From Anaerolineae bacterium (GTDB lineage Bacteria > Chloroflexota > Anaerolineae > DUEN01), in assembly GCA_034432955.1 (NCBI GenBank), contig DAOUBB010000153.1, positions 4,321 through 68,320 of the forward strand: 64,000 nucleotides of DNA, written 5' to 3'. Positions 13,501 to 63,999 of the stretch are shown piece after piece. The notes below the pieces were generated by a model. That model had not been told where the DNA came from. It did not search any database and saw only the letters and a list, made by a program, of their open reading frames with translations. Each line of letters opens with the position of its first letter. Position 1 is the stretch's first letter. Made by a program: the position numbers and the translations under genes.

Positions 13501-13559
13501 GAGATCGTTGAGAAAGCCCGTTTCCGAGAGTCGGCAGTAAAAGGCCAGAGCTTAAGGGA

Positions 13560-15529: not shown

Positions 15530-15585
15530 ACAGGTGTTTGCTCGTGGGGTGTACACCATTCTGCTTCGCCTGGCCCCGGTTCCTC

Positions 15586-15670: not shown

Positions 15671-15798
15671 GGGCATTCCTCACATCTAGAGGGGGAAGCC
15701 GGGTGAAGGCTCGCGCAGGTGGCGAGGTCATCCGCGCAGATTTCTTCGCATCCCATCCCTATTGGGGGGCATGACTGGGACGGGTGAGTGCCAGAAAT

Positions 15799-15969
15799 CT
15801 ATCGTCTATCAATTTTTACCCTGCGACGGATGCCCGGTGAGACCGCCCTGTCCGGTTGCGCCGGCCGGCGATATGGTTCCCACAGGGTGCTTTCTCCCGA
15901 TCCGACGATCATCAGAAACAGCAAAAAGTCTACAACGATGATGGCGAGGATGTCCAACAAGACGTCCAT
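15799..15969 (-). CDS. Small membrane protein, 56 aa (MDVLLDILAIIVVDFLLFLMIVGSGESTLWEPYRRPAQPDRAVSPGIRRRVKIDRR)
   Basis: Not in ORF track. GAGGGA RBS, ATG 15969, TAG 15799; hydrophobic N-terminal helix and basic tail; own promoter upstream. Confidence 0.65.
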   Translation of the reverse strand: MDVLLDILAIIVVDFLLFLMIVGSGESTLWEPYRRPAQPDRAVSPGIRRRVKIDRR

Positions 15970-16016
15970 TGCATCCCTCGCGGTGGCTCTGCATCGAATC
16001 GAACATTGTCAAGCCA

Positions 16017-16045
16017 ATTATGACACAAAAGGGGACAAGATTCAA
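16017..16045 (-). promoter_or_regulatory. Sigma70-type promoter for the small membrane protein
   Basis: TTGAAT-N17-CATAAT with TG extension; overlapped by inverted repeat GGGGACA...TGTCCCC. Confidence 0.55.
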
Positions 16046-16171
16046 TATCTAATGAGCGTGTCCCCTCGTCATCCTCTAGGCGCGCTGGGGCCTCGACTCC
16101 CCCGCGTGCGCCCCTCTTCGCCCTGTGGTATACTCCCCTCCGGTTGATGCTGTCACCTCTGAGGAAATTGG

Positions 16172-17530: not shown

Positions 17531-17567
17531 GCCTCTGCCCCGGGGGTTCGTCAGAAAGAGGTGCACG

Positions 17568-18416
17568 ATGGGGACGCTGTACGTGGTGGGCACGCCGATC
17601 GGGAACCTAGAGGATATGACCTTTCGGGCGGTGCGCGTCCTGCGCGAGGCGCACCTCATCGCGGCGGAGGACACCCGCACTGCTCGCGTGTTGCTCACCC
17701 ACTTCGATATCCACACGCCCGTCACCAGCTATTTTGAGCACAACAAACTGACCAAGCTCGAAACCATCCTGGAGGCGTTGGCAGGCGGGGATGTGGCGTT
17801 GATCTCCGAAGCCGGCATGCCTGGCCTGTCCGATCCCGGCTATGAGCTGATCAAAGCCGCGCTGGAGGCTGGCTATCCGGTGGTGCCTGTCCCGGGGCCG
17901 GTGGCAGCGGTGACGGCGCTGGTGGTGTCTGGCCTGCCCACCGATCGCTTCCTGTTTTTGGGATTTCTGCCGCGTCGCCAGCCGGAGCGACGACGGTTGT
18001 TAGCCTCCGTGGCGGCAGAGCCGGGGACCCTGGTGGCGTACGAGGCCCCTCATCGCCTGTGTCAGACCCTGGCCGATATCGCCGAGGTGCTCGGGGACCG
18101 GTGGATCGCGGTGGCCGAGGAGCTGACGAAGCGGTTCGAATCGGTGTGGCGGGGGCGGGCGAGGGAGGCCGTGGCTCATTTTCAGGCAAAACCGCCCCGC
18201 GGCGAGTACACATTGGTGATCAGCGGCGCGCCGCGGGATGCGAAGGCGGAGGCCTGGCCGGCCGAGCGCCTGAAACTCGCGTTGGGCATGTTGCTCGCAG
18301 AGGGTATATCGCAGGCAGCGGCTGTGCGAATCCTGAGCAAGCTGACAGGGGAGTCGCATCGGGCGATCTACCGCATGGCGTTAGAAATCCGGTCGCAGAC
18401 CGTGATGGAAGCGTAG
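17568..18416 (+). CDS. rsmI: 16S rRNA (cytidine1402-2'-O)-methyltransferase
   Basis: LYVVGTPIGNLEDMT, AAEDTR, ISEAGMPGLSDPG, YEAPHRL, ELTKRFE. Confidence 0.96.
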   Translation: MGTLYVVGTPIGNLEDMTFRAVRVLREAHLIAAEDTRTARVLLTHFDIHTPVTSYFEHNKLTKLETILEALAGGDVALISEAGMPGLSDPGYELIKAALEAGYPVVPVPGPVAAVTALVVSGLPTDRFLFLGFLPRRQPERRRLLASVAAEPGTLVAYEAPHRLCQTLADIAEVLGDRWIAVAEELTKRFESVWRGRAREAVAHFQAKPPRGEYTLVISGAPRDAKAEAWPAERLKLALGMLLAEGISQAAAVRILSKLTGESHRAIYRMALEIRSQTVMEA

Positions 18417-49088: not shown

Positions 49089-50834
49089 TCAATGCCCTCT
49101 CCGGCCTGCCATCTGAGCCGCGCTGATTCCCATCCTCACCTGTAACGTCCGCAGCCGGTTCAGCGCTGCCGCCAGCTCGAACCGTCGAAACCACGCGTAA
49201 TCTCCCATCTGTCGCGGGTCCAGCACATCCAACCCGCCCCTCTCGATGTCGGCCATGACCGCGTCCAGCACCTCTGCCAGCGTGCGCTGGCCGTCTATGT
49301 ACCGCTCGCGAGCGTAGTACAGCGCCTGCGCGATCGCCCGCACCTGCGAGTCGTCCACCAGTTGCTCGACGGCCGACAGGTCAATTTCCTCCTTCCCGAA
49401 CAGGATCGTCTTCAACCCGCGCGCCTTCAGGCTCACCTCGCGGCGTCCCTTGCTGGGGTCTATGCTGTCAGGCAGGGGGATGCGCGGCGTGATCGCGCCG
49501 AAAGAAGGCCCTCCCTCCGGCCGACGCTCCGCCGCATAGCGGCGGGCGATCTCCTTGGCCCGCGCGGTGGCATCCCACGGCCGGTACTCCTCCATCGCGA
49601 TCACCGTGTCGGCCACGTCGAAGTAGTCGCCGCTGCCGCCCATGACGAGGATGGTGGACACGCCGTGCTCCTCATACAGCAGCCGTACCTTGTCTAAAAA
49701 CGGGGTGATCGGCTCATGCTCCTTGGAGATGAGCTCCTGCATCCGGTGGTCGCGGATCATGAAGTTAGTGGCCGCGGTATCCTCGTCCACCAGCAGCACG
49801 CGCGCGCCCGCCTCCAGCGCCTCGATGATGTTGGCGGCCTGTGAGGTGCTGCCGCTGGCATTGTCGGTGGTGAAACAGCGCGTGTCTAGGCCGAACGGCA
49901 GGTTGGCGATGAAGGGGCTGATGTCCACCCCCGCGATGCGGCGGCCGTCCTCGGCGCGCACCTTCACCGCCGCCGGATGCGTGACCACGCGCTCCCGGCC
50001 ATCGCCGGGGATGTGGTTGTACACGCCGCGCTCGATGGCGGAGAGCAACGTGGACTTGCCGTGATACCCGCCGCCCACGATCAACGTCACCCCGCGCGGG
50101 ATCCCCATGCCGGTGATGCGCCCGCTGTGGGGCAGCTCCACCGTCACCCGCAGCGATTCGGGTGAGACGAAGGGGATCGCACCGCGATCCATGGGCCGGT
50201 CGTCCACGCCGCTGCGCCGAGGCAGGATGGCCCCGTCCGCCACGAACGCGACCAGTCCCAGCGCGTCCAACTGCTCACGCAGGACGTCGGCATCCTCGGC
50301 CACGCGCAGGTGTTCCAGCAGCGCGTCCTTCGGCTGGTTGCGGGCCAACAGCGCCTGTTCGACGATGAGCGGTAAGTCCTCGCACAGCATCTCGACCGCC
50401 TGTCGGCCCAGGATGCGCCGCCCGGCGGCGGGCAGGCCGGCCACCAAGCGCGCCTCCACCCAGTCGGCGGTGACCAGCACCGCGGTGCGCTCCAGGATCT
50501 CCTGGCCGGGCATGTCCATGGCCAGCAGTCCGCTGCGACCACTTCCCCGTCGCTCGACGGCCTGTCGGCAGGCGGTGGCGAAGCGCCGGCACAGGAAGTC
50601 GCGCAGGGCGATCTCGCGGCTGCGCGGCGTGAAGGTGGAAGCCCCAAAGCGGGCTACCGACTGCGGCACGCGCACCCGCAGCCGGCTGGGCGATGCGAAG
50701 GGATCGCCCTGCACGTGGTCTATGAACAACGTGAAGTTGGGGAACTCGTAGCGCGGAGCCAGGTCTTTGTAAGCCGGATACCCGCGCCCGTCCAGCCGCA
50801 ACAGAGTCGCTCGTAGGTCTTCGTGAGTAGGCAT
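49089..50834 (-). CDS. ABC-class ATPase domain protein of unknown function
   Basis: HVQGDPFASPS, GGGYHGKST, AEDGR, T.NASGSTSQAA, DEDTAATNFMIRD. ATG 50834 lies just after a TATAAT. Confidence 0.9.
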   Translation of the reverse strand: MPTHEDLRATLLRLDGRGYPAYKDLAPRYEFPNFTLFIDHVQGDPFASPSRLRVRVPQSVARFGASTFTPRSREIALRDFLCRRFATACRQAVERRGSGRSGLLAMDMPGQEILERTAVLVTADWVEARLVAGLPAAGRRILGRQAVEMLCEDLPLIVEQALLARNQPKDALLEHLRVAEDADVLREQLDALGLVAFVADGAILPRRSGVDDRPMDRGAIPFVSPESLRVTVELPHSGRITGMGIPRGVTLIVGGGYHGKSTLLSAIERGVYNHIPGDGRERVVTHPAAVKVRAEDGRRIAGVDISPFIANLPFGLDTRCFTTDNASGSTSQAANIIEALEAGARVLLVDEDTAATNFMIRDHRMQELISKEHEPITPFLDKVRLLYEEHGVSTILVMGGSGDYFDVADTVIAMEEYRPWDATARAKEIARRYAAERRPEGGPSFGAITPRIPLPDSIDPSKGRREVSLKARGLKTILFGKEEIDLSAVEQLVDDSQVRAIAQALYYARERYIDGQRTLAEVLDAVMADIERGGLDVLDPRQMGDYAWFRRFELAAALNRLRTLQVRMGISAAQMAGRRGH

Positions 50835-50940
50835 AGCATCAGACAATTATACTGCAAAGATGCCGGCAAACAAACCAGGGGCCGACTGGATCTCGGCCCC
50901 TGGCCTCCCTTGCGCTGTTCGTCTTGGGCCAGACGCTCTC

Positions 50941-52548
50941 TCACCGGATCCCGGCCAGCTCTTGCAGCCGGCGCCAGTTGGCCAGCCGATCCGCCTGGGC
51001 CCGCAGCAGCGTCTCCGATGGGTTGCCGTCCTTGTCGAAGTGCTTGGCGAAGCGCCCCTCGGTACGGGCAAAGTAGATGAAGTCAATCACCTCGCCCGTC
51101 TTGGGGTTCCGGTACCAGTCCTCTTTGACCGCTGGATTGCCTTGCAGGCTGAGGCGCTCCTTGAATGTGTCGCCCTTGCGCGGATCGTAGATGAAGATCG
51201 GGAACGCCCGCGAATCCACCGCCAGCTTGGCCTGGTGCATGGACATGTTATCGGCCACCTCGTGCTCCGGCTGGCAGGTGGTGTAGACGTTGACGATGGC
51301 CGGGCCAGGGAACGAGTTGGCGTCCATGATCGCCCGGTAAAAGTGGTTGATGTGCGCCGCCGTGGTCTGCGCTACAAAGACGTTGGGATGCATCATGGCG
51401 ATCAGCCCCAGCTCTTTGCGCTGTTCCTGCTTGCCCTGGATCACCTTGCCATGCACAGACATCTTGGTATTCTGGCCAGTGTACGAGGCCGTGGAGGCCT
51501 GGCCGCCGGTGTTGGAGTAGACCTGGGTGTCCAGCACCAAGACCTTGATGTCCATACCGGAGACCAGCATGCGGCTGAGCGATTGGAAGCCGATGTCGAG
51601 CATGGCACCGTCGCCGCCCAGCACCCACAGTCGCTTCTCCTTCCAGCCCATCTGGTCCCAACGGGCGCGCACGCCCATGGCATCGGCCGGCGCGTTCTCA
51701 AACAGCGAGTTCGTCCATGACACCAGGTACGGGTTGTACGGGTAGGTCGAGCCGTACACGGTGTTGCAGCCGGTGGCCGCCACGATGCCGATATTCTCCA
51801 TGCCGTAAACGAACCCGGTGGCCGCCAGCATCATGCGGATCACCGTCGCCTCACCGCAGCCGGCGCACGACCCCGCCCCACCCACGTAGAGGAGCGATTT
51901 CTCGGCCAGCATCATGTCGGCCAGGACGCGCTCCGAGATGAAGCGTTGGGGGGTCTCCGGCAGACGGCGGAAGAACTCAATCCGCTTGCGGTAGATGGGG
52001 ATCGTGTCATCCTGCTTACGGATCATCTCCAGCGCGTTGTGCTCACCGCAGGCGGCGACGCACTCGGCGCACCCTTTGCACTTGGTCGGGTCAATCATGA
52101 TGGTGAAAAGCCCCGGCGTCTGCCCTTTACGCTCGTAGGTGGTGTAGTACTTGGTCGTCCTGGCGAACTGCTGTCGCAAATCCTCTCGCGTCGCTTCATC
52201 GGCGATCTCCGCCAGGCTTTTCTCCAACACGTCCGGCTCGACCACCTTGCCCAGGATCGCCGTGTCCGGGCACTCGGTCACGCACTCCATGCAGCCCACG
52301 CAGTTCTCGGCCTTAAAGCGCGGGATCTCCGGCGCGATGTATGAGAAATCGCGCAGGGCGCCCGTGCCGGCCGGCACGAAGCTGCGTCCCACTCCCAGAT
52401 CGGCCTCCAGTTCCTCTTCCGCCCTCCCCTCTTCGTAGGCGGCCAGGACGCGGTCAAAGAAGTCTTGCACGTCAATCACATCGGGGCTGTATGCGCCATT
52501 GCCCCCGGTGCTCACCTTTCGTATGTCTAAGTCTGTGACTACGCCCAT
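50941..52548 (-). CDS. 2-oxoacid:ferredoxin oxidoreductase, ferredoxin + TPP-binding (delta-beta) subunit
   Basis: CVGCMECVTECP, CKGCAECVAAC, SCAGCGE, GGDGAMLDIG, DTQVYSNTGGQ. Confidence 0.93.
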   Translation of the reverse strand: MGVVTDLDIRKVSTGGNGAYSPDVIDVQDFFDRVLAAYEEGRAEEELEADLGVGRSFVPAGTGALRDFSYIAPEIPRFKAENCVGCMECVTECPDTAILGKVVEPDVLEKSLAEIADEATREDLRQQFARTTKYYTTYERKGQTPGLFTIMIDPTKCKGCAECVAACGEHNALEMIRKQDDTIPIYRKRIEFFRRLPETPQRFISERVLADMMLAEKSLLYVGGAGSCAGCGEATVIRMMLAATGFVYGMENIGIVAATGCNTVYGSTYPYNPYLVSWTNSLFENAPADAMGVRARWDQMGWKEKRLWVLGGDGAMLDIGFQSLSRMLVSGMDIKVLVLDTQVYSNTGGQASTASYTGQNTKMSVHGKVIQGKQEQRKELGLIAMMHPNVFVAQTTAAHINHFYRAIMDANSFPGPAIVNVYTTCQPEHEVADNMSMHQAKLAVDSRAFPIFIYDPRKGDTFKERLSLQGNPAVKEDWYRNPKTGEVIDFIYFARTEGRFAKHFDKDGNPSETLLRAQADRLANWRRLQELAGIR

Positions 52549-52587
52549 ATGGTCCTCTCTTTGGCAGTTTGTGCCGGAAGCTGGTGA

Positions 52588-54549
52588 CTAACGGCTGGCT
52601 ACCGGTTCCCCGTAGATCACCTCCACGGGGATCTCGAACACTTCTTCGTAGCCGCGGCGCACGGCGGTCAGGTTGTCCTGGATCACCTGCTCGCCGCGCT
52701 TGCCGAAGTACTTGCGCAGGGACTTCTCCACGCCGGCCATCACCTCGGCCTGGCTCATCCCCGCGCGCTGCGCAAACGGGGTCGCCTTCAGGAAGATGCC
52801 CAACAGCACGATCCCCTGCATGCGCACGCGCAGGTCTGGTTGCGTGGCCACTTCCTCGGCGATCTTGGCGGCGTCCAGGGCCAGCACGCGAATCTGACGC
52901 TCGCGGATGATGCGCTTGGCGTACTCCGGGATGCTCGCCCATACCGCCGCCGGGTCGGTCTTGGAGGTCTGGACGAAGATCATGCCGCCCTTTGATAGGC
53001 CGGCCAGCGGGTTGCCAGTATAGAACGCGCTCACATCATTCAGCGGGACGAACTCCACGTACTTGAGCTCGCAGTGGGTGCGGATCGGCTCTTGCGAGAT
53101 CGTCAGGTAATAGGTGGTTGGCAAGCCCTTCTTCTCTGAGCCGTATTTCGGGTAGGCCTGTACCTGAAGCCCGAACATATCGCCCACGATATCGGCGATG
53201 ACTTTGTTGGTGGTGACGGAGCCGTAGCCGCCCACGGAGTGGCCGCGCATGGAGAATGACCCCTTGGGCCGGATGTCCGGGTCGAAGGAGTTGTCTAGCG
53301 CCAACTCGTGTTTGATCCCCAGCACGAAATAACGGCGGCCTTCTTCCATCATATTCTTGACGACGGCGATGAAGTCACCTGGCCGCACATCGCGGCTGCC
53401 CAGACCCGCCGAGCCGGAGTAGATCGTCGGGATGCGGGTGATCTCCGGATAGCGGTTGGCCCCGGTGAGGGCGTCGGCGAAGGCGGCCTTGATCTCCACC
53501 GTCAGCGGATTAGATTGCGCCATCGGGTTATCCATGCGCTCGATCACGCTGAAGGCACGCACGCGGCTGAGGGCTTCCACCAGTTGCGGGCCGGGGAAGG
53601 GGCGAAAGGCGGTGACGTGGACGATGCCCACCCGAAGGCCCTGTTCGGCGCGCAGGTAATCCACCGTCGCCCGTGCCGTCTCCATCATGCTGCCCATGCC
53701 GACGATGGCGTACTCAGCGTCGTCCATCGCATAGGTGTCAATCAGCCCGTATCGCCGTCCAGTCAGGGAATAGAACTCGTCCATGGCAGCCTGCAACTTC
53801 TCTTCCACCCGGTCGTACCAGGCGCGCTGGGCGATCTTGCCCTTCATGTACGAGTCCTGGTTCTGGACGACGCCGGTCTGGATAGGGGTTCGCGGGTCCA
53901 TCAGGTTGACCAGCTTGTCCTGGGGCCGGCCGACGAACCTCTCCATCAGCTCCGGCTCTGGCAGCAGGACGTTTTCGACGGTGTGGGTGGTCAGGAAGCC
54001 ATCCTGCACGTTCAGAAAGGGGGTCTGGCTGTCCTCGGCGGCGCGGCGGGCGATCAAGGCCAGATCACCGGCCTCCTGCGCGGTTCGGGCGAAGACGATG
54101 CCCCACCCGGTGTCGGCGACCGCCATCACGTCGTCGTGGCCGGCGTGCACGTTTAACGAATGAGAGGTGAGGGCGCGCGCGCCGATGTGAAACACGCAGG
54201 GCAGTCGCTTGCCGGAGATGGTGTAGAGGACCTCTTTCATCAGGATCAGCCCTTGCCCGGAGGTGAAGTTGGTGACGCGACCGCCGGCCACCGCGAATCC
54301 CTCGCACACTGATGCGGAGCTATGTTCCGATTCAGGCTCCAGGAAGAACAATGGCTCGCCCCACAGGTTGCGCTGGCCATTCGCCGCTGCAGCAGCGTAC
54401 CCGCCTCCCATGGCCGTAGAGGAGGTGATGGGATAGGCGCAAGCCCCTTGTGTGATGTGAGTCTCGACCCAGACAACCATGCCGGATCCGTCACTGGTGG
54501 CCGGAATGCCTGGATAAGGAAATTCAGTCGCAGAACCGTTTTGGCTCAT
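52588..54549 (-). CDS. 2-oxoacid:ferredoxin oxidoreductase, alpha-gamma subunit (PFOR-like)
   Basis: AYPITSST, ESEHSSA, FTSGQGLILM, HIGAR, DGFLTTH, GGYGSVTTNK, YGSEKKG. Confidence 0.93.
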   Translation of the reverse strand: MSQNGSATEFPYPGIPATSDGSGMVVWVETHITQGACAYPITSSTAMGGGYAAAAANGQRNLWGEPLFFLEPESEHSSASVCEGFAVAGGRVTNFTSGQGLILMKEVLYTISGKRLPCVFHIGARALTSHSLNVHAGHDDVMAVADTGWGIVFARTAQEAGDLALIARRAAEDSQTPFLNVQDGFLTTHTVENVLLPEPELMERFVGRPQDKLVNLMDPRTPIQTGVVQNQDSYMKGKIAQRAWYDRVEEKLQAAMDEFYSLTGRRYGLIDTYAMDDAEYAIVGMGSMMETARATVDYLRAEQGLRVGIVHVTAFRPFPGPQLVEALSRVRAFSVIERMDNPMAQSNPLTVEIKAAFADALTGANRYPEITRIPTIYSGSAGLGSRDVRPGDFIAVVKNMMEEGRRYFVLGIKHELALDNSFDPDIRPKGSFSMRGHSVGGYGSVTTNKVIADIVGDMFGLQVQAYPKYGSEKKGLPTTYYLTISQEPIRTHCELKYVEFVPLNDVSAFYTGNPLAGLSKGGMIFVQTSKTDPAAVWASIPEYAKRIIRERQIRVLALDAAKIAEEVATQPDLRVRMQGIVLLGIFLKATPFAQRAGMSQAEVMAGVEKSLRKYFGKRGEQVIQDNLTAVRRGYEEVFEIPVEVIYGEPVASR

Positions 54550-54772: not shown

Positions 54773-57577
54773 TTACCCTATCCCCCCTGGCCCCCTTTCA
54801 GGGGTAGATTTTTCTGCCATCCGCAGTTCAAGGGTAACGACTTCTCCTCCGCGCGTTGGTACTTCGACGAGATGCTCCTGTCGGATCGGCAGGGGTTCTT
54901 GCCGTTCCTCGTTGAGATTCGTGCGCCAAGCTTCCCTTAAGGGGCGCCATGACATCACTCGCGAGGTTACCGGCTCCGACGTCACGTTGTAAAACCGCAC
55001 AATCACCCCCTGGCCATCGCGGCTCCGGCGCACAGCGCTTAGAACCAACTCGCGCGGCTCTACCTGTAGGAAGCTGAGCCGATCCGGGTTGGGGCCGCCG
55101 CGCGGCCACGGGATGGCCCGCACGCGCGCCGGGTCATCGCGGGTGATGTTCATCTCCTTCAATTCGAGCCCTTCATGCGTGTCACCGCGGGCGACCAGGA
55201 GCGGCGCGACATAGCCATAGGCAATAGGGTAAACCTGACGCCAGTCGCCGGCGTGAGGCAGGATGGCATATTCGAACCGGTGCACGCCCAGACATTGTGC
55301 CTCTGGCGTCTCCACGAGGGGGCCGGCAGCCACCCGCCGGGTCGCCAGATCATCCCGCGAGAGCCAGCCTACGCAGCGCAACAGCGTGAGCGCGATCTGA
55401 GTTCCCCGCTCGGTGTGAGTCACTTCGACGGAAGGCAACCCGCGGTTGAGCACGGCGAACCCTCGTCCCCCCTGGCTCAGGTCCGTGAATGAGCGCTGAT
55501 GCATGAGCGGCGTCGGATCCTCCACCCATCCCCCCGCTGCCGGCAGTTCGATCTCGCGGGCGACGACCGCGAACGATTCGTCCACGTGCACCTGGTCCGG
55601 CCGCAAATCGGTGGAAAACACGGCCGAGAGCTTGTGATCGCGCGCCCGATTGTCTATCTCCGTTACAATGTACAGCCCCGGCTGGTCGCGGTAAAGGGTG
55701 ATCTCTGAGACGATGGGGACGTCCACCCGTTCGGCGCTACGCTGCCGCCGATCCGGGGTGAGGCCAACGGGCAGCGGCAAGGTGTGCTCCACGCGGAAGG
55801 TGGCCAGACACGGTCCCTCCCGCACGAGCGTCACGCGGGCGGGCCGGCCCACTGTGTTCACAACAGCAGGAGAGAGGCTCCTGCTATCCTCTTCACCCCC
55901 CGAACGGTGAGGGCAGGGGGCATAGCTGTACTCGTCGCCGGCATCTTCCACGTCGTAGAAATGGTGCAACCCGATATACCATTGGCCGGTCGTCTTATCC
56001 AGCACGTCCAGGCCGCCGTCTTCAGCGATCGCGAAGGCCAGATAGCGATTGGAGGCACCCCGTTGCCCAATCCGCCAGTCCGGCGGGAGATCGGGCGCCT
56101 GGCCTGGACGAGGAGGTTGGGCGTAGTAGATGCGATAGCCGCACGCCGGCGCGTCAGCCACGAACGCGACGCGCACCCGTCGTTTGCGGTTGGGCTTGAG
56201 CACCTCCATCCAGACGAGTTCGCGGTCATCCAGCACCTGGTGCGGCACGGCGCGACCCTCCCCGTCCACGATCTGGAAGTCGTTGGCGACGGGGTCGTCG
56301 AAATCGAAATCCACGTCGCCGATGGCGATCTCCTGCCGATCCCGGTTGAGCGGGTTGTAGACCAGGATCGGCGTCCCCGGCTGGCGTGTACAATCGGCCT
56401 GGCGGGCCAGGTAGCGCACCGCGTTGCGGACCAGCGCCTCGCCGATCTGCTCGGCTTGCCGGAAACGGAACATGGTCTCCCGATGCACTTCGTCCACCCC
56501 GGCTCCGTACATGTCGTCGTGCGGATGGCTTTGCAGGAGATAGCGCCAGGCGGTCCAGATCAGATCGTCCGTCCCGGCCGGGACCTCTGCCCCGGCGAGC
56601 CAGGCGAAGGCGGTCAACGGCTCCGCATACCGCTCCAGCAGCGTCTCCACGCGATGGTTGGCCTGCTTTAGGTAGATCCGGGTGGAGTAGACCCCTTGCA
56701 AGATCTCGGAGTAACGTCCCCAGCGGAATTCCCCGGAGAAGCAGGGCAGAGAGGCCGCCTCAGCTCGCACGCGGGCGAGGTGCTCCGCCAGCGTGCCGTG
56801 ATGGATCTCGACGTCGGGCAGCTCCTGGTTCGCGCGAGCGATTACCTTGGGGATGCGCGGCTCCGGTTCGGCGTGGTCAATGCCGTTCATCAGGAGCAGC
56901 GCCGAGGTGTGAGCAAATGGCTTGAGCTGATCCACAGCCTTGCGGATCTGCTCCAACGCCAGGTCCTCATCGAACTCCATCTGTGACGTGTCGCCCCAGT
57001 GGATGGCGTATCCCAAGTTGGAGACGTTGTGATAGCCGAACGGCATCAGGACTGCAGTCACGCTGGAGCCGTCTGGGGCGACCCATTCGAACTCGGTGCC
57101 CAGCCGATCTCCCTCTGCGCCCATGCCGCGCCAGAAGAAGGCAGAGTCGATCCCGAAGCCGCGCAGGATCTGCGGCAATTGGGCGATGTGGCCGAAGCCG
57201 TCGGGGACGTAGCCGATCTTCATCACCCCGCCGTATGGCTCGGCCAGGCGATGGCCCAGCATCAGGTTGCGGATGAGCGACTCCGGGCTCACCAGGAACT
57301 CGTCGGCGAGCACGTACCAGGGGCCAACCTGGATGCGGCCCGCGCGACAGAGCTCCTGTAGCTCCTTGGCGCGCTGCGGCCGCACCTCCAGGTAGTCCTC
57401 GATCACCGACATCTGCCCGTCCAACATGTAAACACGGTATTCGGGGTTCCACCGCAGCAGGTCGAGCAGGCGGTCCACCAGGCGCACCAGGCGGATGCGG
57501 TACTCTTGGAACGGGACATACCAGGCTCGGTCCCAATGGGTGTGGCTGACCAGGGTGGCGTGATATGGCTTGTTCAT
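54773..57577 (-). CDS. GH38 alpha-mannosidase (MngB-like subtype)
   Basis: HTHWDRAWY, LDGQ, GPWYVLADEFL, PDGFGHIAQLPQ, NGIDH, PHDD. Confidence 0.93.
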   Translation of the reverse strand: MNKPYHATLVSHTHWDRAWYVPFQEYRIRLVRLVDRLLDLLRWNPEYRVYMLDGQMSVIEDYLEVRPQRAKELQELCRAGRIQVGPWYVLADEFLVSPESLIRNLMLGHRLAEPYGGVMKIGYVPDGFGHIAQLPQILRGFGIDSAFFWRGMGAEGDRLGTEFEWVAPDGSSVTAVLMPFGYHNVSNLGYAIHWGDTSQMEFDEDLALEQIRKAVDQLKPFAHTSALLLMNGIDHAEPEPRIPKVIARANQELPDVEIHHGTLAEHLARVRAEAASLPCFSGEFRWGRYSEILQGVYSTRIYLKQANHRVETLLERYAEPLTAFAWLAGAEVPAGTDDLIWTAWRYLLQSHPHDDMYGAGVDEVHRETMFRFRQAEQIGEALVRNAVRYLARQADCTRQPGTPILVYNPLNRDRQEIAIGDVDFDFDDPVANDFQIVDGEGRAVPHQVLDDRELVWMEVLKPNRKRRVRVAFVADAPACGYRIYYAQPPRPGQAPDLPPDWRIGQRGASNRYLAFAIAEDGGLDVLDKTTGQWYIGLHHFYDVEDAGDEYSYAPCPHRSGGEEDSRSLSPAVVNTVGRPARVTLVREGPCLATFRVEHTLPLPVGLTPDRRQRSAERVDVPIVSEITLYRDQPGLYIVTEIDNRARDHKLSAVFSTDLRPDQVHVDESFAVVAREIELPAAGGWVEDPTPLMHQRSFTDLSQGGRGFAVLNRGLPSVEVTHTERGTQIALTLLRCVGWLSRDDLATRRVAAGPLVETPEAQCLGVHRFEYAILPHAGDWRQVYPIAYGYVAPLLVARGDTHEGLELKEMNITRDDPARVRAIPWPRGGPNPDRLSFLQVEPRELVLSAVRRSRDGQGVIVRFYNVTSEPVTSRVMSWRPLREAWRTNLNEERQEPLPIRQEHLVEVPTRGGEVVTLELRMAEKSTPERGPGGIG

Positions 57578-58791
57578 TTTGCTCTTGCTCTTGCTTCCTC
57601 AGCCATGCGCACCTGCATCTTCACCGGCGTGTTCTCCAGCAGCCAGGCTTCCATGCGCGCTTTGATCTCCTCGGGCGTCTCTCGATAACCGTAAGTCTCC
57701 AGGAGCACGGGAGTCCACTTCTTCCCCCAGTAGATGTGGTTCCCCTCGTCGCTCCAATCGTAAGCGACGGCGGCGGCTGAGATCTCGTCGCCGATGCGCT
57801 CCCAGTGTTCGCGGTTGCGCACCTTCTCCGGCATGCCGTTGGGCTCGATGACGGTGGTCAAAAGGGCGTATTGTTCGACAGCGGGCAATTTCATCATCAC
57901 GTTATAGATCTGTACCACCTGCCAGATGTCCTTCGGCTCGAAGCCCAATTGGCGCAGGCGAGTCTGGCCCAACTGGCTGTGGCGCACCTCATCCCACAGG
58001 TGCCGGGCGGTGTTGTACTGGAATTCCCAGGGCATTTCGGGGGTCATCCAGAGGATCGAGCCCAGGGTCTCGGCCGCGGTCATCTCGTTCAGGTAATGCC
58101 GGAAGCGCCATTCGCGATGAGCCTCGGGATACTGCTCGCGATCGGGCTCGATGTCGGTGCTGGGGTCGAAGATCGGCCAGCCCGGCTCGCGCTGGCACTC
58201 ATACCAGGGCAGCAACAGGGCATGCCCCGCCGGCCGCTCCGGGAGCGGCGCGATGGGCTCCTGCCCTGAGACGCCGCCAGTAGCGGCCAGAAGCCCGGCG
58301 ATGTACGCCTGCCAGGGCTCCCAGTCCGGGTAGCCGGTGAGCGCGTTCAGCGTCTGTTGGGCCCAGGCCACCTGGCGAGCGGTGACCTCAGCCAGGTCAG
58401 CGGTGATGCGCACGGTAGGCCGGTCGAACTCAGGATATGTGAGCGTCTGGTGTTGCCGGTAGGCGTCCAGCAGCCCTTGCTTGATCACCAGATACACGGT
58501 GGCCACTAGCTCCGCGGTGTTCTGGGCGCAGTCGAGCTCTTTGGCCAGGTGGGGAAAGGCCTCCGGGACGCCTCGTTCCGGCTTGGCGACTCGCAGCTCT
58601 TGAAGCCGGCCGCGCAGCCTGTGAGCCGCCTCGGCTGACTCCCAGATGTGCAGGCCGATCTCGTTCTTAACGTCCCACTCGGGCACGCCCGGCAGCCAGC
58701 CGGCCAGCGTGCGCATGCACGCCTGTTCCAGAAACGCGTAGCGTCGAAGCAACTCCTGATTCCGGACGAAACCGATGCGTGAAGCTACCAT
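57574..58791 (-). CDS. Ferritin-like didomain protein (DUF455-like C-terminal domain)
   Basis: NEMTAAE, WDEVRH, EPNG, DEGNHIYWGKKW (two ExxH motifs). GGAGAG RBS before ATG 58791. Confidence 0.75.
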   Translation of the reverse strand: MVASRIGFVRNQELLRRYAFLEQACMRTLAGWLPGVPEWDVKNEIGLHIWESAEAAHRLRGRLQELRVAKPERGVPEAFPHLAKELDCAQNTAELVATVYLVIKQGLLDAYRQHQTLTYPEFDRPTVRITADLAEVTARQVAWAQQTLNALTGYPDWEPWQAYIAGLLAATGGVSGQEPIAPLPERPAGHALLLPWYECQREPGWPIFDPSTDIEPDREQYPEAHREWRFRHYLNEMTAAETLGSILWMTPEMPWEFQYNTARHLWDEVRHSQLGQTRLRQLGFEPKDIWQVVQIYNVMMKLPAVEQYALLTTVIEPNGMPEKVRNREHWERIGDEISAAAVAYDWSDEGNHIYWGKKWTPVLLETYGYRETPEEIKARMEAWLLENTPVKMQVRMAEEARARAK

Positions 58792-58823
58792 CTCTCCGAT
58801 CCTCCGGTCTTCCGTCGCCTGTC

Positions 58824-59975
58824 TCAACCCACTGGCCCATACTCCACGGCCGCCTCGTACATCGCGTTGATGTTCTCCACCGGCGAGCCGGGGGCGATGT
58901 TGTTGCCGTCCTGGATGATCAACCCCCGATAGCGCCCCAGCTTTTCGATCACCCGGCGCGTGGCAGCCTTCACCTCTTCGGGCGTGCCGTAGCGGATCAG
59001 CAACGGGTTGACGTTGCCGTCTAGGACGATGCGGCCCCCCATCACCTCACCGATCCGGTCCAGATCTACCTCCCAGCCGAACCCCTGGTACTCGTGGATC
59101 TTCAGCTCGTCGGCGAAGATGGGTAGCAGGTGATCGGTGTGGCCGCACATGTGGAAGCTGACCCAGCCGTCGAAGTGAAAGCGCAGCTTCTGCTCGAATG
59201 GGAGCACCAGATCGCGGTACGTCTCGGCCGACAGGTATGCGGCCAGATCGTCGGTCCAGGCGAAATCGCGATGGGGGAGTTTCAGCTCTTGCCAGCAGAA
59301 GTCCAGGTACTCGATGATCTTGTCGGTGACGATGCTTAATAGCTCTCGCACGAACTCCGGGCGCTCTTTGATTGCCAGAAACATCTCCGTCTGCCCCATC
59401 AGGTCGGCGGCCACCGTGAACGGGCCGTGCGACGTATGGGTGAAGACCGGGCTGGCGCCCGGATAGAAAATCGGGCCGCCCAGAAAGCGGACGGGATACT
59501 TCTCAGCGACAGCCATCATCCGCTGGCGATATTCGATCGCCTTCCCGTGCAGGCCGTTGTGGATCACATCCATCCTTTCCAGCTTGCGCAGGTCCCGGTC
59601 GGTCTTCACCCAGCCTCCGCATACCCAAGGGATGTCGTCGGGCGGGAAGATCACCTCACAGCCCAGGGCTGACTGCTCGCTGGTGTTCTGGAAGTCAGTC
59701 CAGGCGCCCACCCAGGCGCCGGTGATCGAATATTGGTCGGTCTTGATGTGCTCCATCAGCCACTTCTGGCCCAGGATCTGCGAGCGGAGCATGACCTCCG
59801 GATCGTGGTAGTAGTCGGCGAAGCGGACGCCGATGGCCGGCAACAGGTAGCGATAGTTGATGGCCGGGATGACCGCCACGCGGTCGGTGGGCTCAAAGTG
59901 TTTGGTCTTCGCCACGCGCGCTCGTCGCGCCTCGATCTCCTCGATGGGGACGGCAATCTCGATCACGGCGTGCAT
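58824..59975 (-). CDS. Uroporphyrinogen decarboxylase (URO-D/MT2) family protein
   Basis: GPFTVAADL, TDD, FHMCG, GNVNP...GTPEEV, PG.PVENI.AM. Confidence 0.88.
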   Translation of the reverse strand: MHAVIEIAVPIEEIEARRARVAKTKHFEPTDRVAVIPAINYRYLLPAIGVRFADYYHDPEVMLRSQILGQKWLMEHIKTDQYSITGAWVGAWTDFQNTSEQSALGCEVIFPPDDIPWVCGGWVKTDRDLRKLERMDVIHNGLHGKAIEYRQRMMAVAEKYPVRFLGGPIFYPGASPVFTHTSHGPFTVAADLMGQTEMFLAIKERPEFVRELLSIVTDKIIEYLDFCWQELKLPHRDFAWTDDLAAYLSAETYRDLVLPFEQKLRFHFDGWVSFHMCGHTDHLLPIFADELKIHEYQGFGWEVDLDRIGEVMGGRIVLDGNVNPLLIRYGTPEEVKAATRRVIEKLGRYRGLIIQDGNNIAPGSPVENINAMYEAAVEYGPVG

Positions 59976-59987
59976 CTCGATCCTCGT

Positions 59988-60860
59988 CTACTTGATCGCC
60001 CCTCGCGTGAGCCCCGCCACGATCAGCCGCTGGAAGAAGACCACCAACAGCAGCACCGGGAGGATCATCGCCACGCTCAGCGCGCTCATGAGGTCCCACG
60101 GCCGGCCGGCGCCCATGGCCGGGTCCACCTGCATCTCCACCAACCCCACGCTCAACGTCTTGGTGAAGCGATTCGTGGCAAAGACCAGCGGATACAGCAA
60201 CTCGTTCCACGAGATGATGAAATTGATGATGATCATCGTCGCCAGCGCCGGCTTGACGATGGGGACCACCACCCTCAGCAGCACCTGCGGCAGGCTCGCC
60301 CCGTCCATGATCGCCGCCTCCTCGATCTCAGCCGGGATCTGTTGGATGAAGGAGACCAGGATCCAGACGGTGAAAGGGGTGATCAGGCTGGACATGAGCA
60401 AGATCAGCCCGTGATATCGGTTGACCATGTTCAGGGCTTTGAACACCTCGAAGAGAGGGACCAGCGTGCCGATCTGAGGCAGCGCAATGGAGAGGATGAA
60501 GCCCATGAAAACGACGTTGCTGCCGCGAAAGCGGATGCGGGCCAGGGCGTAGCTAGCCAGGAAGGAGAGGGCGACCGAGACCACGCTAGAGCCGAGGGCG
60601 AAGATCAGGGAGTTGCGGAAGTACCGGAAAAACGGGATGTTGCGCGTCATATTGACATAATTTTCCAGTGTCAATTCCGTGGGCCAGTACCTCGGCGGGA
60701 TCGAGAACATCTGATACTTGGGCGTGACCGAAGAGATCAGAATCCAGTAAAACGGCAATAAGGTCACGAACAGGAATAAGAGCACAAGCAGATACAGGAA
60801 GGCCCGGTCAGCCCATGCCTGTGCGCGCTGGGTCAGAAGGTTCGTACCCTTTGTCTGCAT
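59988..60860 (-). CDS. Carbohydrate ABC transporter permease (MalG-like)
   Basis: EAA loop IPAEIEEAAIMDGAS, SWNELLYP. Confidence 0.95.
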   Translation of the reverse strand: MQTKGTNLLTQRAQAWADRAFLYLLVLLFLFVTLLPFYWILISSVTPKYQMFSIPPRYWPTELTLENYVNMTRNIPFFRYFRNSLIFALGSSVVSVALSFLASYALARIRFRGSNVVFMGFILSIALPQIGTLVPLFEVFKALNMVNRYHGLILLMSSLITPFTVWILVSFIQQIPAEIEEAAIMDGASLPQVLLRVVVPIVKPALATMIIINFIISWNELLYPLVFATNRFTKTLSVGLVEMQVDPAMGAGRPWDLMSALSVAMILPVLLLVVFFQRLIVAGLTRGAIK

Positions 60861-60922
60861 GGGTATCCTCCGCAAGGGAGCAAGTCAGCGAAGAGCGAGC
60901 CAACGTGCCCATGGGTGATGCC

Positions 60923-61864
60923 TCAGTACAGCACCTCGACACGCCGGTAGATCAGCAGGCCGATGCCGCCGACGACGCCGACCGTCACAAACAGGATCAG
61001 GCTCAAGGCAGACGCATAGCCGAAGTTGAGGCCGCCGAACGCCTCGCGGTAGATGTTATAGGCCAGCACCTGGGTGGCGAAGCCCGGCCCGCCGCCCGTC
61101 ATACTGTAGATCAGGTCGAAGGCGGCCAGTTGCCACACCAGCATGAACAGCCCCATCGTGGTCGCCTGGGGCAGGACGAGCGGGACGGTGATGAACCGGA
61201 ACGTCTGCAGGCGATTGGCCCCGTCCACCCGTGCCGCTTCGTACAGCTCGGCCGGCACCCCTTGCAACGCCGCCAGAAAGACGATGGCCAGAAAAGGGGT
61301 GCTCTTCCAGATGTTGGTCATGGTGATGGCCGCGCGCGCGCCCCAAAAGTGGATCAGCCAGGGGAACCGGATACCGGTCAGGCGTCGCAGGAGGTCGTTG
61401 ATGATCCCATAGTCCACGTCGTACATCCAGCGGAAGCCGATGGCGGCCACGACCATGGGAATCGCCCAGGGGATCAGGTTCACAGTGCGGGCGAACCCGC
61501 GCAGCCTGAACTGGCTGTTGAGCAGCGAGGCGACCAGCAGCCCGAAGATCAGTTGAAAAGCGGTGGAGACCACCACGAACAGGATGGTGAACGAGATGCT
61601 GCTGCGCACGGCGATATCCTGGCTCAGCTTCCAGAAGTTGCCGAGCCCGATGAAGCGGCTCGGAGGAAAGGCGGGGTTGTACTCAAAGAAGCTCAGATAG
61701 ATGGTGTGAAAGAAGGGGTAGACAGCCGTGAACAATCGCAGGCCGATCGCCGGCAATAGCAGCAACGCCGCCGTCAGATATCGTCGCCCGGCCAGGCCGG
61801 CTACGCTGCGCGGTCGCGCCCGGACGCTGGCTGCCGATAGGGTTGCGTTCGTCTGTAAACCCAT
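60923..61864 (-). CDS. Carbohydrate ABC transporter permease (MalF-like)
   Basis: ELYEAARVDGA, IWKSTPF. Confidence 0.95.
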   Translation of the reverse strand: MGLQTNATLSAASVRARPRSVAGLAGRRYLTAALLLLPAIGLRLFTAVYPFFHTIYLSFFEYNPAFPPSRFIGLGNFWKLSQDIAVRSSISFTILFVVVSTAFQLIFGLLVASLLNSQFRLRGFARTVNLIPWAIPMVVAAIGFRWMYDVDYGIINDLLRRLTGIRFPWLIHFWGARAAITMTNIWKSTPFLAIVFLAALQGVPAELYEAARVDGANRLQTFRFITVPLVLPQATTMGLFMLVWQLAAFDLIYSMTGGGPGFATQVLAYNIYREAFGGLNFGYASALSLILFVTVGVVGGIGLLIYRRVEVLY

Positions 61865-61884
61865 GGGGGATCTCTCCGACAAGT

Positions 61885-61971
61885 GGTCAGCGGTCAGCTT
61901 TCAGCATCGGCGTTGGACTCCTCTGGGGTGGCCGATCGCCGATGGCTGATCGCTGACCGCTGACAGCTGAC
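61885..61971. repeat. Heptamer tandem repeats forming an inverted repeat (STRR-like)
   Basis: GGTCAGC GGTCAGC TTTCAGC ATCGGCG ... GCCGATC GCCGATG GCTGATC GCTGACC GCTGACA GCTGAC. Confidence 0.8.
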
Positions 61972-61975
61972 TCGT

Positions 61976-63283
61976 TTATCCGAGCGCCTGGATCCGCTCG
62001 GCGCCCTGCTTCATGGCCTCCTCGAGCGAGATCTGCTTGGTCAGGAAGAGCGAGCCCACGTCGTCCACCACGCTCTGGGCCTCGGGCACTTTTTCGTGGA
62101 AGGGGCGAGGGGCAGGCACGTTGTTGTCAATGTACATCTTCATGTACGGCACCAACCCCTCATTGCCCATCGCGTCCAGGATGGACTTGCGCGGCATGAC
62201 GAACCAGCTCTGCCCTCTCGCCAGAATGGGCGCGTTCTCGTTGTTGGTGATCCAGGCGATGAGGTCCAGCGCTTCCGGCTTATGGGGGGCGAACTTGGGC
62301 ACGCTGAAGCCCCATCCACCCCACCAGCTCTTGGCGCCGGCCGGCCCCGCCGGCGGCAGGGTGATCTCGGCCTTGCCCTCCTGGTACCACGCCGTATTGC
62401 CGCGCGAGACGCCCCAGAAGTATGGCCACTGCCGCATCATCGCCACGCGGTCCTTCATGTACTCGTCGTTCTGCTGCGTGTAGTCAATGCTGAGCGCCTT
62501 CTCCGGCAGGATCTTGTGGGTGTAGATGAGGTCGTAGACGAACTGGAAGGCCTGGGCCGTCTTCTCATCGAACTTGAAGATCTCACCGCCGGTTTGCGAC
62601 GTGATGTAGGCCAGATAGACGTACATCAGCCCCGGCTTGATGAGGGCCTCGATGGTGCCGTAGGTGTTCTCGGTGGTGAACTCCTTGCCGATGGTGATGA
62701 ACTCATCCCAGTTCTTGGGCGGCTGGATCCCCTTCTCGTCGAACCAGTCCTTGCGGTACCAGAAGTAGCCGATGGCAAATTCATGGGGGACGCGGTACCG
62801 GTGACCCTGATAGCTGTGCCAGATCTCGATCTGACTCTTGAAGATCTCGGGGAAGTCCGCCCAGGTCTCGGCGGGGATGACGTCATCCAGTGGCTCGATC
62901 CAGCCGGCTCGATAAAAAGATGGGCCGGAGTCGTCGGCGTCGCTGAAGACGTCCACCGGGCTGGTGCCGGCCTGGAAGGCGGGCGCGTACTTGGTAACCA
63001 TCTCCTGGCCGGTGGTGGGGCCGCTCTCCAGCTCCACCTTGTGGCCTGTCTTCGCGGTCCAGGCGTCCAGGACGGGACGCATGGCGTCATGGGCGAAGGC
63101 CTGGATCGCCAGCACCAGCGTCTTCTTTTCGGCCGGCGCGAGTTTGGCCTCTTCCTTGGTGGGCGCCGGGGCCGGCGCGGCGGGGGTAGCGGGCGGCACG
63201 CAGGCAGCCAGGGCTACACTGGTCGCGGTCACCCCCGCCATCCGCAAGAACTCACGACGTGAAAACCTCTCTTTGTGAGACAT
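61976..63283 (-). CDS. Sugar ABC transporter solute-binding protein, Tat-exported lipoprotein
   Basis: Twin-arginine SRREFLR, lipobox LAAC, Pro/Ala linker, family 1 SBP fold motifs. Confidence 0.93.
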   Translation of the reverse strand: MSHKERFSRREFLRMAGVTATSVALAACVPPATPAAPAPAPTKEEAKLAPAEKKTLVLAIQAFAHDAMRPVLDAWTAKTGHKVELESGPTTGQEMVTKYAPAFQAGTSPVDVFSDADDSGPSFYRAGWIEPLDDVIPAETWADFPEIFKSQIEIWHSYQGHRYRVPHEFAIGYFWYRKDWFDEKGIQPPKNWDEFITIGKEFTTENTYGTIEALIKPGLMYVYLAYITSQTGGEIFKFDEKTAQAFQFVYDLIYTHKILPEKALSIDYTQQNDEYMKDRVAMMRQWPYFWGVSRGNTAWYQEGKAEITLPPAGPAGAKSWWGGWGFSVPKFAPHKPEALDLIAWITNNENAPILARGQSWFVMPRKSILDAMGNEGLVPYMKMYIDNNVPAPRPFHEKVPEAQSVVDDVGSLFLTKQISLEEAMKQGAERIQALG

Positions 63284-63375
63284 AGTTCCCTCCTGCTCCT
63301 TTGAAAGGACTGAAAGGTTCACAGCAGACTACGGGATAGCCACGCCATCCCGTGACCTCCGCTTTGACGAGATGG

Positions 63376-63999
63376 CTAAGGAGCCGAGGTCACCATCTGC
63401 CCGGCTCGGCTCCAATTCCTCCTTTCCACCATGTCCACAAGGGGCTGATCTCGCAGATAGGCCCCACAGGAATGGCGGACGATCAACCTCGTGGGCAGGA
63501 TGTGTCGCTCGATTCCGGGGGATCGCCCTTGGATCTTGCGGATGATCACCTCCGCAGCCGTCTTCCCCATCTCGAAGATCGGCTGCGCGATGGTGGTGAG
63601 CGGCACATCCAGGTGCGCCGCGATGTCCAGATCGTCGAATCCCACCAGCCCCAGGTCTTGCGGCACGGTCAGGCCCAGGGTATGGGCCGCCCGGCGCACC
63701 GCCAGAGCCAACTGGTCATTGGCCGCGAACACCGCGGTTGGACGCGGCTCCCGCCGGAGAAACTCGGCCAGGGCATCCAGGTCAATGGTCGGGTATCCCT
63801 CTACCTCACACTCGAACGCGGGGTCCACCGGCAGCCCGGCTTCCTCCAACGCGCACCGGTAGCCGGCGCGGCGATGCTCCATGGTGATGGCCGGATCGCG
63901 CCAGCTCACGAAGGCGATCCGGCGATGCCCCAGCCGCAGCAGATGCTGGGTCGCCCGTAGCCCGCCGCCGAAGTTGTCGCTGGTCACATAGTCGGTGTG
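63376..63999 (-). CDS. LacI/AraR-type sugar-binding transcription regulator, C-terminal part
   Basis: V.SDNFGGG, LGHRRIAF, RPTAVFAANDQLA, VPQDLGLVGFDD, LTTIAQP; runs off the window. Confidence 0.92.
   Translation of the reverse strand, partial: HTDYVTSDNFGGGLRATQHLLRLGHRRIAFVSWRDPAITMEHRRAGYRCALEEAGLPVDPAFECEVEGYPTIDLDALAEFLRREPRPTAVFAANDQLALAVRRAAHTLGLTVPQDLGLVGFDDLDIAAHLDVPLTTIAQPIFEMGKTAAEVIIRKIQGRSPGIERHILPTRLIVRHSCGAYLRDQPLVDMVERRNWSRAGQMVTSAP

Follow-up and report, generated by a model that had tools for sequence, protein, structure and literature searches.

A 64,000-nucleotide stretch of the Anaerolineae contig DAOUBB010000153.1 (the window) ends in a run of genes encoding a regulator, a sugar ATP-binding cassette (ABC) importer, a protein with the uroporphyrinogen decarboxylase (URO-D) fold (U1), a duplicated ferritin-like protein (D1) and a glycoside hydrolase family 38 (GH38) alpha-mannosidase. 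The locus is read here as a regulon for sugar use that includes two conserved accessory enzymes, D1 and U1, neither of which has been characterised. Comparative analysis of related genomes gives good support to an alpha-mannoside uptake and hydrolysis regulon in which D1 would be co-regulated with the hydrolase. The best explanation of the whole, which we hold tentatively and at somewhat less than an even chance, is a regulon for the import and breakdown of a decorated alpha-mannoside, with a diiron oxygenase (D1) and U1 as an accessory enzyme. Within this explanation, the regulon itself carries high confidence, the oxygenase role moderate confidence and the specific removal of a methyl ether low confidence.

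A conserved diiron ligand set in a duplicated ferritin-like protein

The AlphaFold2 model of D1 (predicted local distance difference test, pLDDT, 96) comprises two four-helix bundles. The N-terminal and C-terminal halves of the protein align with each other in hhalign (94.8% probability, E 5e-8), which agrees with the ferritin-like didomain label that D1 had been given in the original prediction. The model and the alignment indicate that D1 is an internal duplication of the ferritin-like fold, the N-terminal copy of which appears to have lost its ligands in this lineage. In an alignment of 88 sequences that extends down to about 22% identity, only a handful of residues are invariant. Five of the six ligands of the diiron set E..ExxH..E..ExxH are invariant in these sequences, and the Glu at the fourth position is kept in at least 90% of them. 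All six ligands are located in the C-terminal half, within long helices of the model, and invariant Arg residues lie close to the site. There is good support for D1 as a genuine diiron-site protein that is strongly constrained in sequence, its identity of 65-72% among orthologs being as high as that of GH38.

By its motif and its modelled fold, D1 belongs with the ferritin-like diiron proteins; its membership of the Pfam family DUF455 (PF04305) appears marginal. The DUF455 score is 38.4 bits against a cut-off of 34.3, and the match covers profile positions 74-239 of 247 in the C-terminal half only. D1 exceeds the DUF455 model in length by about 150 residues, and its N-terminal half (200 residues) matches no Pfam family. 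A literature search, which was not exhaustive, found no function for DUF455. No solved relative was found by a sequence search of the PDB, and Foldseek against the PDB gave no match at E <= 1e-3 and none of full length, with TM-scores to the query of at most 0.34. The partial structural neighbours are single ferritin-like bundles (T4moH, PaaA/C, ADO, YciF, Dps-like proteins and bacterioferritin). NCBIfam assigns no family to D1, to its paralog D2 (described below) or to five distant D members. The D family is large: matches at E <= 1e-3 comprise at least 737 clusters at 50% identity, and more than 536 metagenome matches belong to just one distant subfamily.

The gene set recurs in related genomes

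D1 orthologs were collected from one genome per species, and partner genes were located within 10 kb of D1 by tblastn with the window proteins. Orthologs of 65-71% identity are present in 29 genomes, 28 of which are labelled Chloroflexota (Anaerolineae, Aggregatilineales and Phototrophicaceae) and one Pleurocapsa. U1 is found near D1 in 18 of the 29 loci and GH38 in at least 17, and orthologous SBP (the solute-binding protein of the importer), permease and regulator genes are near D1 in most of them; several of the partner-negative loci are short contigs. Recurrence of this gene set in 29 species-level genomes puts the arrangement far beyond chance. The order and orientation of the D1, GH38, ABC and U1 genes vary widely among the loci, which suggests selection on co-location rather than simple inheritance. 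Across these genomes, the conservation of D1 (65-72% identity) and of U1 (62-73%) matches that of GH38 (61-69%). The original prediction had been staked on D1 and U1 accompanying GH38 and sugar ABC genes elsewhere, and they do so. As a pair, D1 and U1 co-occur in the 18 loci mentioned above and are not obligate partners, each being found without the other.

In 10 of the 29 loci, D1 is directly followed by a D paralog (D2; 25-30% identity to D1, about 468 residues, diiron motif intact) and then by a plant-type 2Fe-2S ferredoxin (Fer2). These ferredoxin genes support the redox chemistry that had been proposed for the ferritin-like protein. Up to three URO-D-fold (U) paralogs per locus are present in relatives. 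Hydrolases of families GH2 and GH172 (DUF2961) also recur in the D1 neighbourhoods, at 850-3558 in locus L030, at 1545-5311 in locus L033 and in several other loci. Five loci have another layout, in which D1-D2-Fer2 is divergent from SBP-permeases-GH172-GH2-regulator and no U gene is present; in L017, the only one of the five followed further out (as L033), GH38 is located after the regulator. Because D2 and Fer2 are missing from it, the window carries a reduced version of a system that is fuller elsewhere, where D2, Fer2, GH2, GH172 and as many as three U paralogs are present.

A shared palindrome and an AraR-type regulator

A 12-bp AT-rich palindrome, WTGTAYANWCAW (TTGTATATACAA-like), occurs in 31 copies in 556 kb of loci, where shuffled sequences predict 0.95. 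All copies fall between genes. The majority are found within about 300 nucleotides upstream of D1, GH38, SBP or U1, frequently inside a divergent promoter region, and others sit just upstream of the regulator gene. The window truncates this gene, whose N-terminus and promoter fall past base 64000. In L030, a 93%-identical relative of the window, the full-length regulator ortholog consists of a GntR-type winged helix-turn-helix and a periplasmic-binding-protein (PBP) domain, which is an AraR-type architecture. The palindrome is a putative operator of this AraR-type regulator, and its placement provides good in-silico evidence that D1, GH38, SBP, U1 and the regulator form one regulon. It was found neither in the window, the promoter being located past its last base, nor in L030, the closest relative of the window; the lineage of these two may use a variant box.

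A separate repeat was noticed in L030. This GC-rich element of about 70 nucleotides (…GGGCACAGCGGTGCTGYGCCCCTACACGGCAC…CCTCCTGACAAATGGTGCGTGCACC) has two intergenic copies, at about 690-770 upstream of GH2 and at about 6510-6590 between SBP and the first permease. It resembles a small repeat or mobile element and does not occur in the window.

U1 is predicted to be an MtaA-like barrel with an incomplete zinc site

U1 matches the fold-level URO-D model of Pfam with 102 bits against a cut-off of 23.9. In its AlphaFold2 model (pLDDT 90), the best Foldseek match is Methanosarcina MtaA (E 1e-16, TM-score 0.68-0.76), ahead of uroporphyrinogen decarboxylases. U1 and its paralogs U2 and U3 all score best against the MtaA/CmuA methyltransferase models of NCBIfam; the U1 scores of 72 and 76 bits lie below the family cut-offs of 235 and 244 (TIGR01463 and NF004889, respectively). 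HemE was rejected as an identity for U1, since TIGR01464 gives 34.3 bits against a cut-off of 303. Aligned to the MtaA structure 4ay7, U1 keeps the HxC motif together with an N-terminal DRVPV motif, and His275-x-Cys277 is invariant in orthologs and in paralogs at about 20% identity. The position of the third zinc-ligand Cys is occupied by Asn358 in U1, by Ser in one ortholog and by Asp in the paralogs. These comparisons identify U1 as a probable MtaA-like barrel with an incomplete zinc site and not as HemE. Regarding the URO-D/MT2 assignment originally made for U1, the fold and the MtaA-like branch are borne out, while the decarboxylase type is not and the zinc site lacks a ligand. No B12-binding domain was detected among the called genes of L030, L033, L036, L037, L122 and the window operon, a scope that covers the gene neighbourhoods only. 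To our knowledge, coenzyme M synthesis is not known in Chloroflexota.

Distant relatives of D1 and U1 in other catabolic loci

D members of 30-38% identity adjoin a sulfatase with a rhamnose mutarotase (RhaM) and a major facilitator superfamily sugar transporter, another sulfatase, a GH78 rhamnosidase with an FAD oxidoreductase, and a BNR-repeat protein. At 10001-18385 of locus L038, a D member (33% identity) is located beside a GntR/PBP regulator, a Bmp-type nucleoside ABC importer and an adenosine deaminase. Because of this nucleoside importer and deaminase, it is a possibility that some D family members act on modified nucleosides.

The neighbourhoods of a distant D subfamily were surveyed in 80 metagenome loci with 294 neighbouring open reading frames, using Pfam. 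A D gene of about 30% identity is directly upstream of GH38 in four of the 80 loci (L073, L074, L087 and L089) and beside GH172 in L072. The commonest neighbour families include ABC sugar permeases (10), AraC regulators (6) and GH38 (6), followed by 3-keto-disaccharide hydrolases (4) and by PfkB kinases, SBP_bac_1 and xylose-isomerase-like barrels (3 each). The tight two-gene D-GH38 module is also present in loci with no other recognisable sugar genes. A specific, deep association of D with GH38 is indicated by this sequence survey.

A U1 ortholog (69% identity) at 7122-12246 of locus L122 lies between a 954-residue protein with an FGE-sulfatase domain and an inosine-uridine nucleoside hydrolase. 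This locus contains sulfatases and a sugar ABC system and has neither D1 nor GH38 within 10 kb; U1 therefore appears to be used outside a mannoside context. The gene neighbourhoods thus present D and U as separable accessory enzymes, both of which appear to track varied glycoside and nucleoside catabolic loci.

Organisation of the operon and neighbouring genes

Seven same-direction minus-strand open reading frames, assigned by Pfam and NCBIfam, occupy positions 54773-63999 up to the window end, with intergenic gaps of 12-93 nucleotides (Table 1). All seven genes of the run are those first proposed: a regulator, an SBP that is a lipoprotein of the twin-arginine translocation (Tat) pathway, two permeases, and the URO-D-fold, ferritin-like and GH38 proteins. 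The last three frames had been described as overlapping or near-overlapping. For D1 and GH38 this is an overlap, of the GH38 start with the D1 stop (ATGA); U1 and D1 do not overlap, being about 32 nucleotides apart. Through the ATGA overlap, GH38 is predicted to be translationally coupled to D1. The likely start of D1 is the ATG at 58791-58789, which has GGAGG upstream; a TTG at 58827 is less likely. None of the seven genes encodes a kinase, an isomerase, a dehydrogenase or a corrinoid protein, which accords with the gene content reported at the outset.

The importer combines a family-1 SBP (Pfam SBP_bac_1) with two MalF/MalG-type permeases (BPD_transp_1), the composition of a CUT1 system. An ATPase gene for it was not found in the locus; ATPase sharing is common among CUT1 systems. 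The signal region of SBP contains an SRREFLR twin-arginine motif and an LAAC lipobox and scores 17.3 against the TAT_signal cut-off of 16.7; an alternative start is possible at the ATG at 63283. The nearest solved relatives of SBP are trehalose/maltose, MalE3 and sulfoquinovosyl-glycerol binding proteins, all at E 1e-21 or weaker.

In GH38, all four domains of the family architecture (Glyco_hydro_38N, Alpha-mann_mid, 38C and 38C2) exceed their Pfam cut-offs. The family is defined by an N-terminal metal-binding HxHxD motif and a DxFGH nucleophile motif, which are represented here by HTHWD at residue 12 and DGFGH at residue 126. The nearest solved relatives are the enzymes of Enterococcus (3lvt) and Streptococcus pyogenes (2wyh), with E-values of 1e-99 to 1e-103. 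The mannosylglycerate hydrolase MngB equivalog (NF007331) is the best NCBIfam match and was nevertheless rejected as an identity, since GH38 scores 482 bits where the cut-off is 1138. Both GH38 and the importer are typical of their families. A second GH38, of 1022 residues and another subfamily, occurs in the window at about 27% identity to the operon GH38.

As to the other hydrolases, in L030 GH2 lies upstream of the regulator, a position corresponding to just past the window end. A beta-mannosidase identity for GH2 was discarded; its nearest solved relatives are instead beta-glucuronidases, a beta-galactofuranosidase and beta-galactosidases. GH172 is nearest to the unnamed structures 4kq7 and 8ah3, then to difructose-anhydride synthase and, more distantly, to alpha-D-arabinofuranosidase.

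Pyruvate:ferredoxin oxidoreductase (PFOR) genes and a P-loop gene lie downstream of GH38. PFOR was considered as part of the system and set aside, as it adjoins the operon only in L030 and not in the other 29 loci. The position of this ferredoxin-reducing enzyme beside a putative ferredoxin-dependent oxygenase may be a coincidence.

Table 1. Features of the window, with positions in window coordinates, and of related loci, with positions given by locus.
Feature	Position	Strand	Basis or remarks
Regulator	63376 to beyond 63999	-	Peripla_BP_3, Pfam E 1e-37; C-terminal LacI/RbsR-like PBP effector domain in window
SBP of CUT1 sugar ABC importer	61976-63322	-	SBP_bac_1, E 1e-28; Tat signal and lipobox
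ABC permease 1, MalF/UgpA-like	60923-61882	-	BPD_transp_1; top NCBIfam matches UgpA and MalF, under cut-offs
ABC permease 2, MalG/UgpE-like	59988-60875	-	BPD_transp_1; top NCBIfam matches UgpE, GlcU and MalG, under cut-offs
U1, URO-D-fold TIM-barrel, predicted MtaA-like branch	58824-59975	-	Pfam URO-D, E 3e-29
D1, duplicated ferritin-like protein (predicted)	57574-58791	-	Pfam DUF455, 38.4 bits, C-terminal half only
D1 predicted ligand codons	E 58084-86, E 57988-90, H 57979-81, E 57844-46, E 57745-47, H 57736-38		
GH38 alpha-mannosidase, cytoplasmic	54773-57577	-	four GH38 Pfam domains; HTHWD and DGFGH motifs
PFOR, two-subunit	50941-54549	-	directly downstream of GH38
ABC_ATPase/MRB1590-type P-loop gene	49089-50846	-	downstream of GH38 with PFOR genes
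Second GH38 and two fused ABC exporter genes (ABC_membrane and ABC_tran), adjoining	953-4021, 4073-7828	-	
D2 and Fer2	L033:11322-13006; also L002, L003, L007, L008, L010, L016, L019, L025, L026		
WTGTAYANWCAW palindrome (putative operator)	loci L003-L029, e.g. L017:9803 and 9936, L019:262, L008:9946		

A model for decorated alpha-mannoside catabolism

In the proposed mechanism, the lipoprotein-anchored SBP and the two CUT1 permeases would import the substrate with an ATPase encoded elsewhere, and the cytoplasmic GH38 would cut its alpha-mannosidic bonds. D1 would be a soluble diiron-carboxylate oxygenase that is supplied with electrons by a ferredoxin and uses activated O2 to hydroxylate a C-H bond beside a hydrolase-resistant linkage. 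The dependence of D1 on O2 and ferredoxin is inferred; D1 is read in this manner because a ferredoxin and a motif-bearing paralog follow it in a third of the loci. D genes are found beside glycosidases of very different kinds, beside sulfatases and beside a nucleoside system, and for this reason the target is taken to be a hydrolase-resistant decoration, an ether such as O-methyl fitting best. The most economical target would be an O-methyl ether on mannose, although a methyl ether as the substituent is speculative. The hydroxylated ether would collapse as a hemiacetal to the free sugar and formaldehyde, which would unblock the residue for GH38 or make the product usable. U1, an MtaA-like barrel bearing a zinc-type His/Cys site, would be the other accessory enzyme and would probably handle methyl or alkyl groups of the same decoration class; the methyltransferase-like sequences of U1-U3 point weakly toward methyl chemistry. 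It is plausible that D1 and U1 would jointly remove one substituent from an imported modified mannoside.

Several observations weigh against this model. Ferritin-like diiron sites also occur in non-oxygenases such as rubrerythrin, Dps and YciF. The whole 64-kb window lacks both D2 and the ferredoxin, as do about two thirds of the related loci. No formaldehyde-detoxifying gene, ferredoxin reductase or corrinoid protein was found in any annotated locus. D1 and U1 each occur alone, D with GH38 and no U, and U1 with no D1, and many neighbours of the distant D subfamily are unrelated to sugars (peptidases, regulators and others). In addition, classical methyl transfer by U1 is doubtful because the third MtaA zinc ligand is missing and no corrinoid partner lies nearby.

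A bolder generalisation, which is rather unlikely to hold in full, is that the duplicated DUF455-like proteins are widespread ferredoxin-dependent diiron oxygenases, serving as glycan-catabolism auxiliaries with a preferred GH38 partnership and removing ether decorations (O-methyl) from mannose, other sugars or nucleosides. They would be a non-haem counterpart of the P450 demethylase of algal sugars, and the MtaA-like U proteins would provide another route, possibly independent of O2. That D1 represents a new class of auxiliary enzymes is a realistic possibility. Methylated and otherwise ether-decorated sugars, which are widespread in the glycans of algae, fungi, bacteria and invertebrates, block glycosidases. 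If the model is true, a diiron family tied to GH38 and other glycosidases would be a new auxiliary activity in carbohydrate catabolism, a role would be assigned to a large family with no known function, and it would become clearer how Anaerolineae, abundant as they are in mats, sludge and sediments, feed on recalcitrant glycans. Even with a different chemistry, the D1-GH38 linkage and the predicted operator constitute a defined, testable system.

Alternative explanations

The special chemistry might concern the aglycone of an imported alpha-mannosyl conjugate, such as a compatible solute of mannosyl-glycerate-like or mannosyl-polyol type or a glycosylated small molecule, which GH38 would free, D1 would oxidise and U1 would transform. 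The affinity of related CUT1 SBPs for heterosides, for example sulfoquinovosyl-glycerol, is consistent with this notion, and an operon with no sugar kinase or isomerase could direct its unusual enzymes to a non-sugar part. The best NCBIfam match of GH38, mannosylglycerate hydrolase, points the same way, but GH38 remains far under the cut-off of that model. Moreover, the recurrence of GH2 and GH172 in the regulon suggests a substrate derived from an oligo- or polysaccharide, and D members accompany many different glycosidases and sulfatases. We consider an aglycone role unlikely.

A combined oxic and anoxic system is improbable as well. Here, U1 and its paralogs would act with a corrinoid protein encoded elsewhere in an anaerobic O-demethylation of the methylated sugar, and D1 would provide the aerobic route for the same compound. 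The MtaA/CmuA-like character of U1, U2 and U3, with the HxC motif kept, accords with this scheme, and the presence of up to three U paralogs per locus recalls the substrate-specific methyltransferase families of acetogens and methanogens. Anaerolineae are often facultative or anaerobic, and the PFOR genes adjoin the operon. However, U1 is without the third zinc ligand, and none of the annotated loci encodes a B12-binding protein, an activase or a pterin methyltransferase.

It is quite improbable that D1 is not an oxygenase but a ferritin-like metal-handling protein, for example a metal supply or buffer for GH38, or a rubrerythrin-like peroxidase partner, with U1 as an unrelated passenger. GH38 enzymes are metal-dependent, the tight D-GH38 gene pair is also found where no further sugar genes are recognisable, and many structural neighbours of D1 are Dps, YciF and bacterioferritin. 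Yet D members are found with sulfatases, GH78 and nucleoside transporters where GH38 is absent, and D1 is followed in 10 loci by another paralog of catalytic appearance and by a dedicated 2Fe-2S ferredoxin. D1 itself is predicted to be a 400-residue two-domain protein of monomer type with invariant Arg residues near the site, unlike a 24-mer or 12-mer storage cage.

Tetrapyrrole metabolism, with a HemE-like decarboxylase and a diiron oxidase or cyclase merely adjoining the sugar operon, could draw on the Pfam URO-D match and on diiron enzymes such as AcsF that act on tetrapyrroles, but is effectively excluded by the hemE equivalog score of 34 against 303, by the MtaA-type DRVPV and HxC motifs and the MtaA structural match of U1, and by the shared putative operator and the shuffled yet conserved synteny that bind D1 and U1 to GH38 and the ABC genes.

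Comparison with known systems

The decorated-mannoside regulon favoured here resembles several described systems in part. The GH38 loci of Streptococcus pyogenes (SpGH38) and Enterococcus faecalis contain a GH38 of the same subfamily (E about 1e-100) with an ABC sugar importer and a repressor; we know of no diiron or URO-D-fold genes in these streptococcal and enterococcal loci. AraR-type regulators of Bacillus subtilis likewise fuse a GntR winged helix-turn-helix to a LacI/GalR-type effector domain and have an AT-rich TGT..ACA palindromic box upstream of regulated genes. The candidate box described here is not visible in the window.

The MT2 proteins MtaA and MtbA (PDB 4ay7) are the best structural and NCBIfam matches of U1 and share its His-x-Cys zinc motif and DRVPV. 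They differ from U1 in that identity is only about 20%, the U1 scores reach one third of the family cut-offs and the third Cys is replaced by Asn, Ser or Asp; U1 also has no corrinoid gene nearby and is located in a sugar operon.

The four-helix-bundle E..ExxH..E..ExxH site predicted for D1 is that of the soluble, ferredoxin-dependent diiron-carboxylate oxygenases, which include acyl-ACP desaturase, ADO, MiaE, PaaA/C and toluene monooxygenase hydroxylase. A further resemblance is the plant-type 2Fe-2S ferredoxin gene that adjoins D1/D2 in relatives. The pairing of a catalytic with a degenerate bundle is similar to PaaA/PaaC and to the alpha and beta subunits of the hydroxylases, except that both bundles are fused in one D1 chain. 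These oxygenases serve lipid, aromatic or tRNA metabolism, whereas the context of D1 is glycan catabolism.

No published pathway combining these genes was found in the literature, in a search that was not exhaustive; the earlier statement that no described sugar pathway combines them holds, with a single P450 precedent beside it. In porphyran use, 6-O-methyl-D-galactose is demethylated by a cytochrome P450 with a ferredoxin and a ferredoxin reductase, and formaldehyde is the product (PMC9400963, PMC10033563). This system is the only described enzymology found for a methoxy sugar (PMC9400963, PMC10033563), and by analogy the P450-ferredoxin methoxy-sugar demethylase is most plausibly the nearest functional analogue of D1, with or without D2 and Fer2. 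The P450 is a haem-thiolate enzyme with no sequence or fold relationship to the ferritin-like diiron protein D1, and its activity is demonstrated, that of D1 predicted. It operates in polysaccharide utilisation loci of marine Bacteroidota, whereas the present loci belong to Chloroflexota with ABC importers and the substrate would be a mannoside. In both cases, an oxygenase (putative for D1) and a ferredoxin partner are placed inside a glycan-utilisation locus, where they would take off a non-hydrolysable decoration and let glycosidases and central metabolism proceed.

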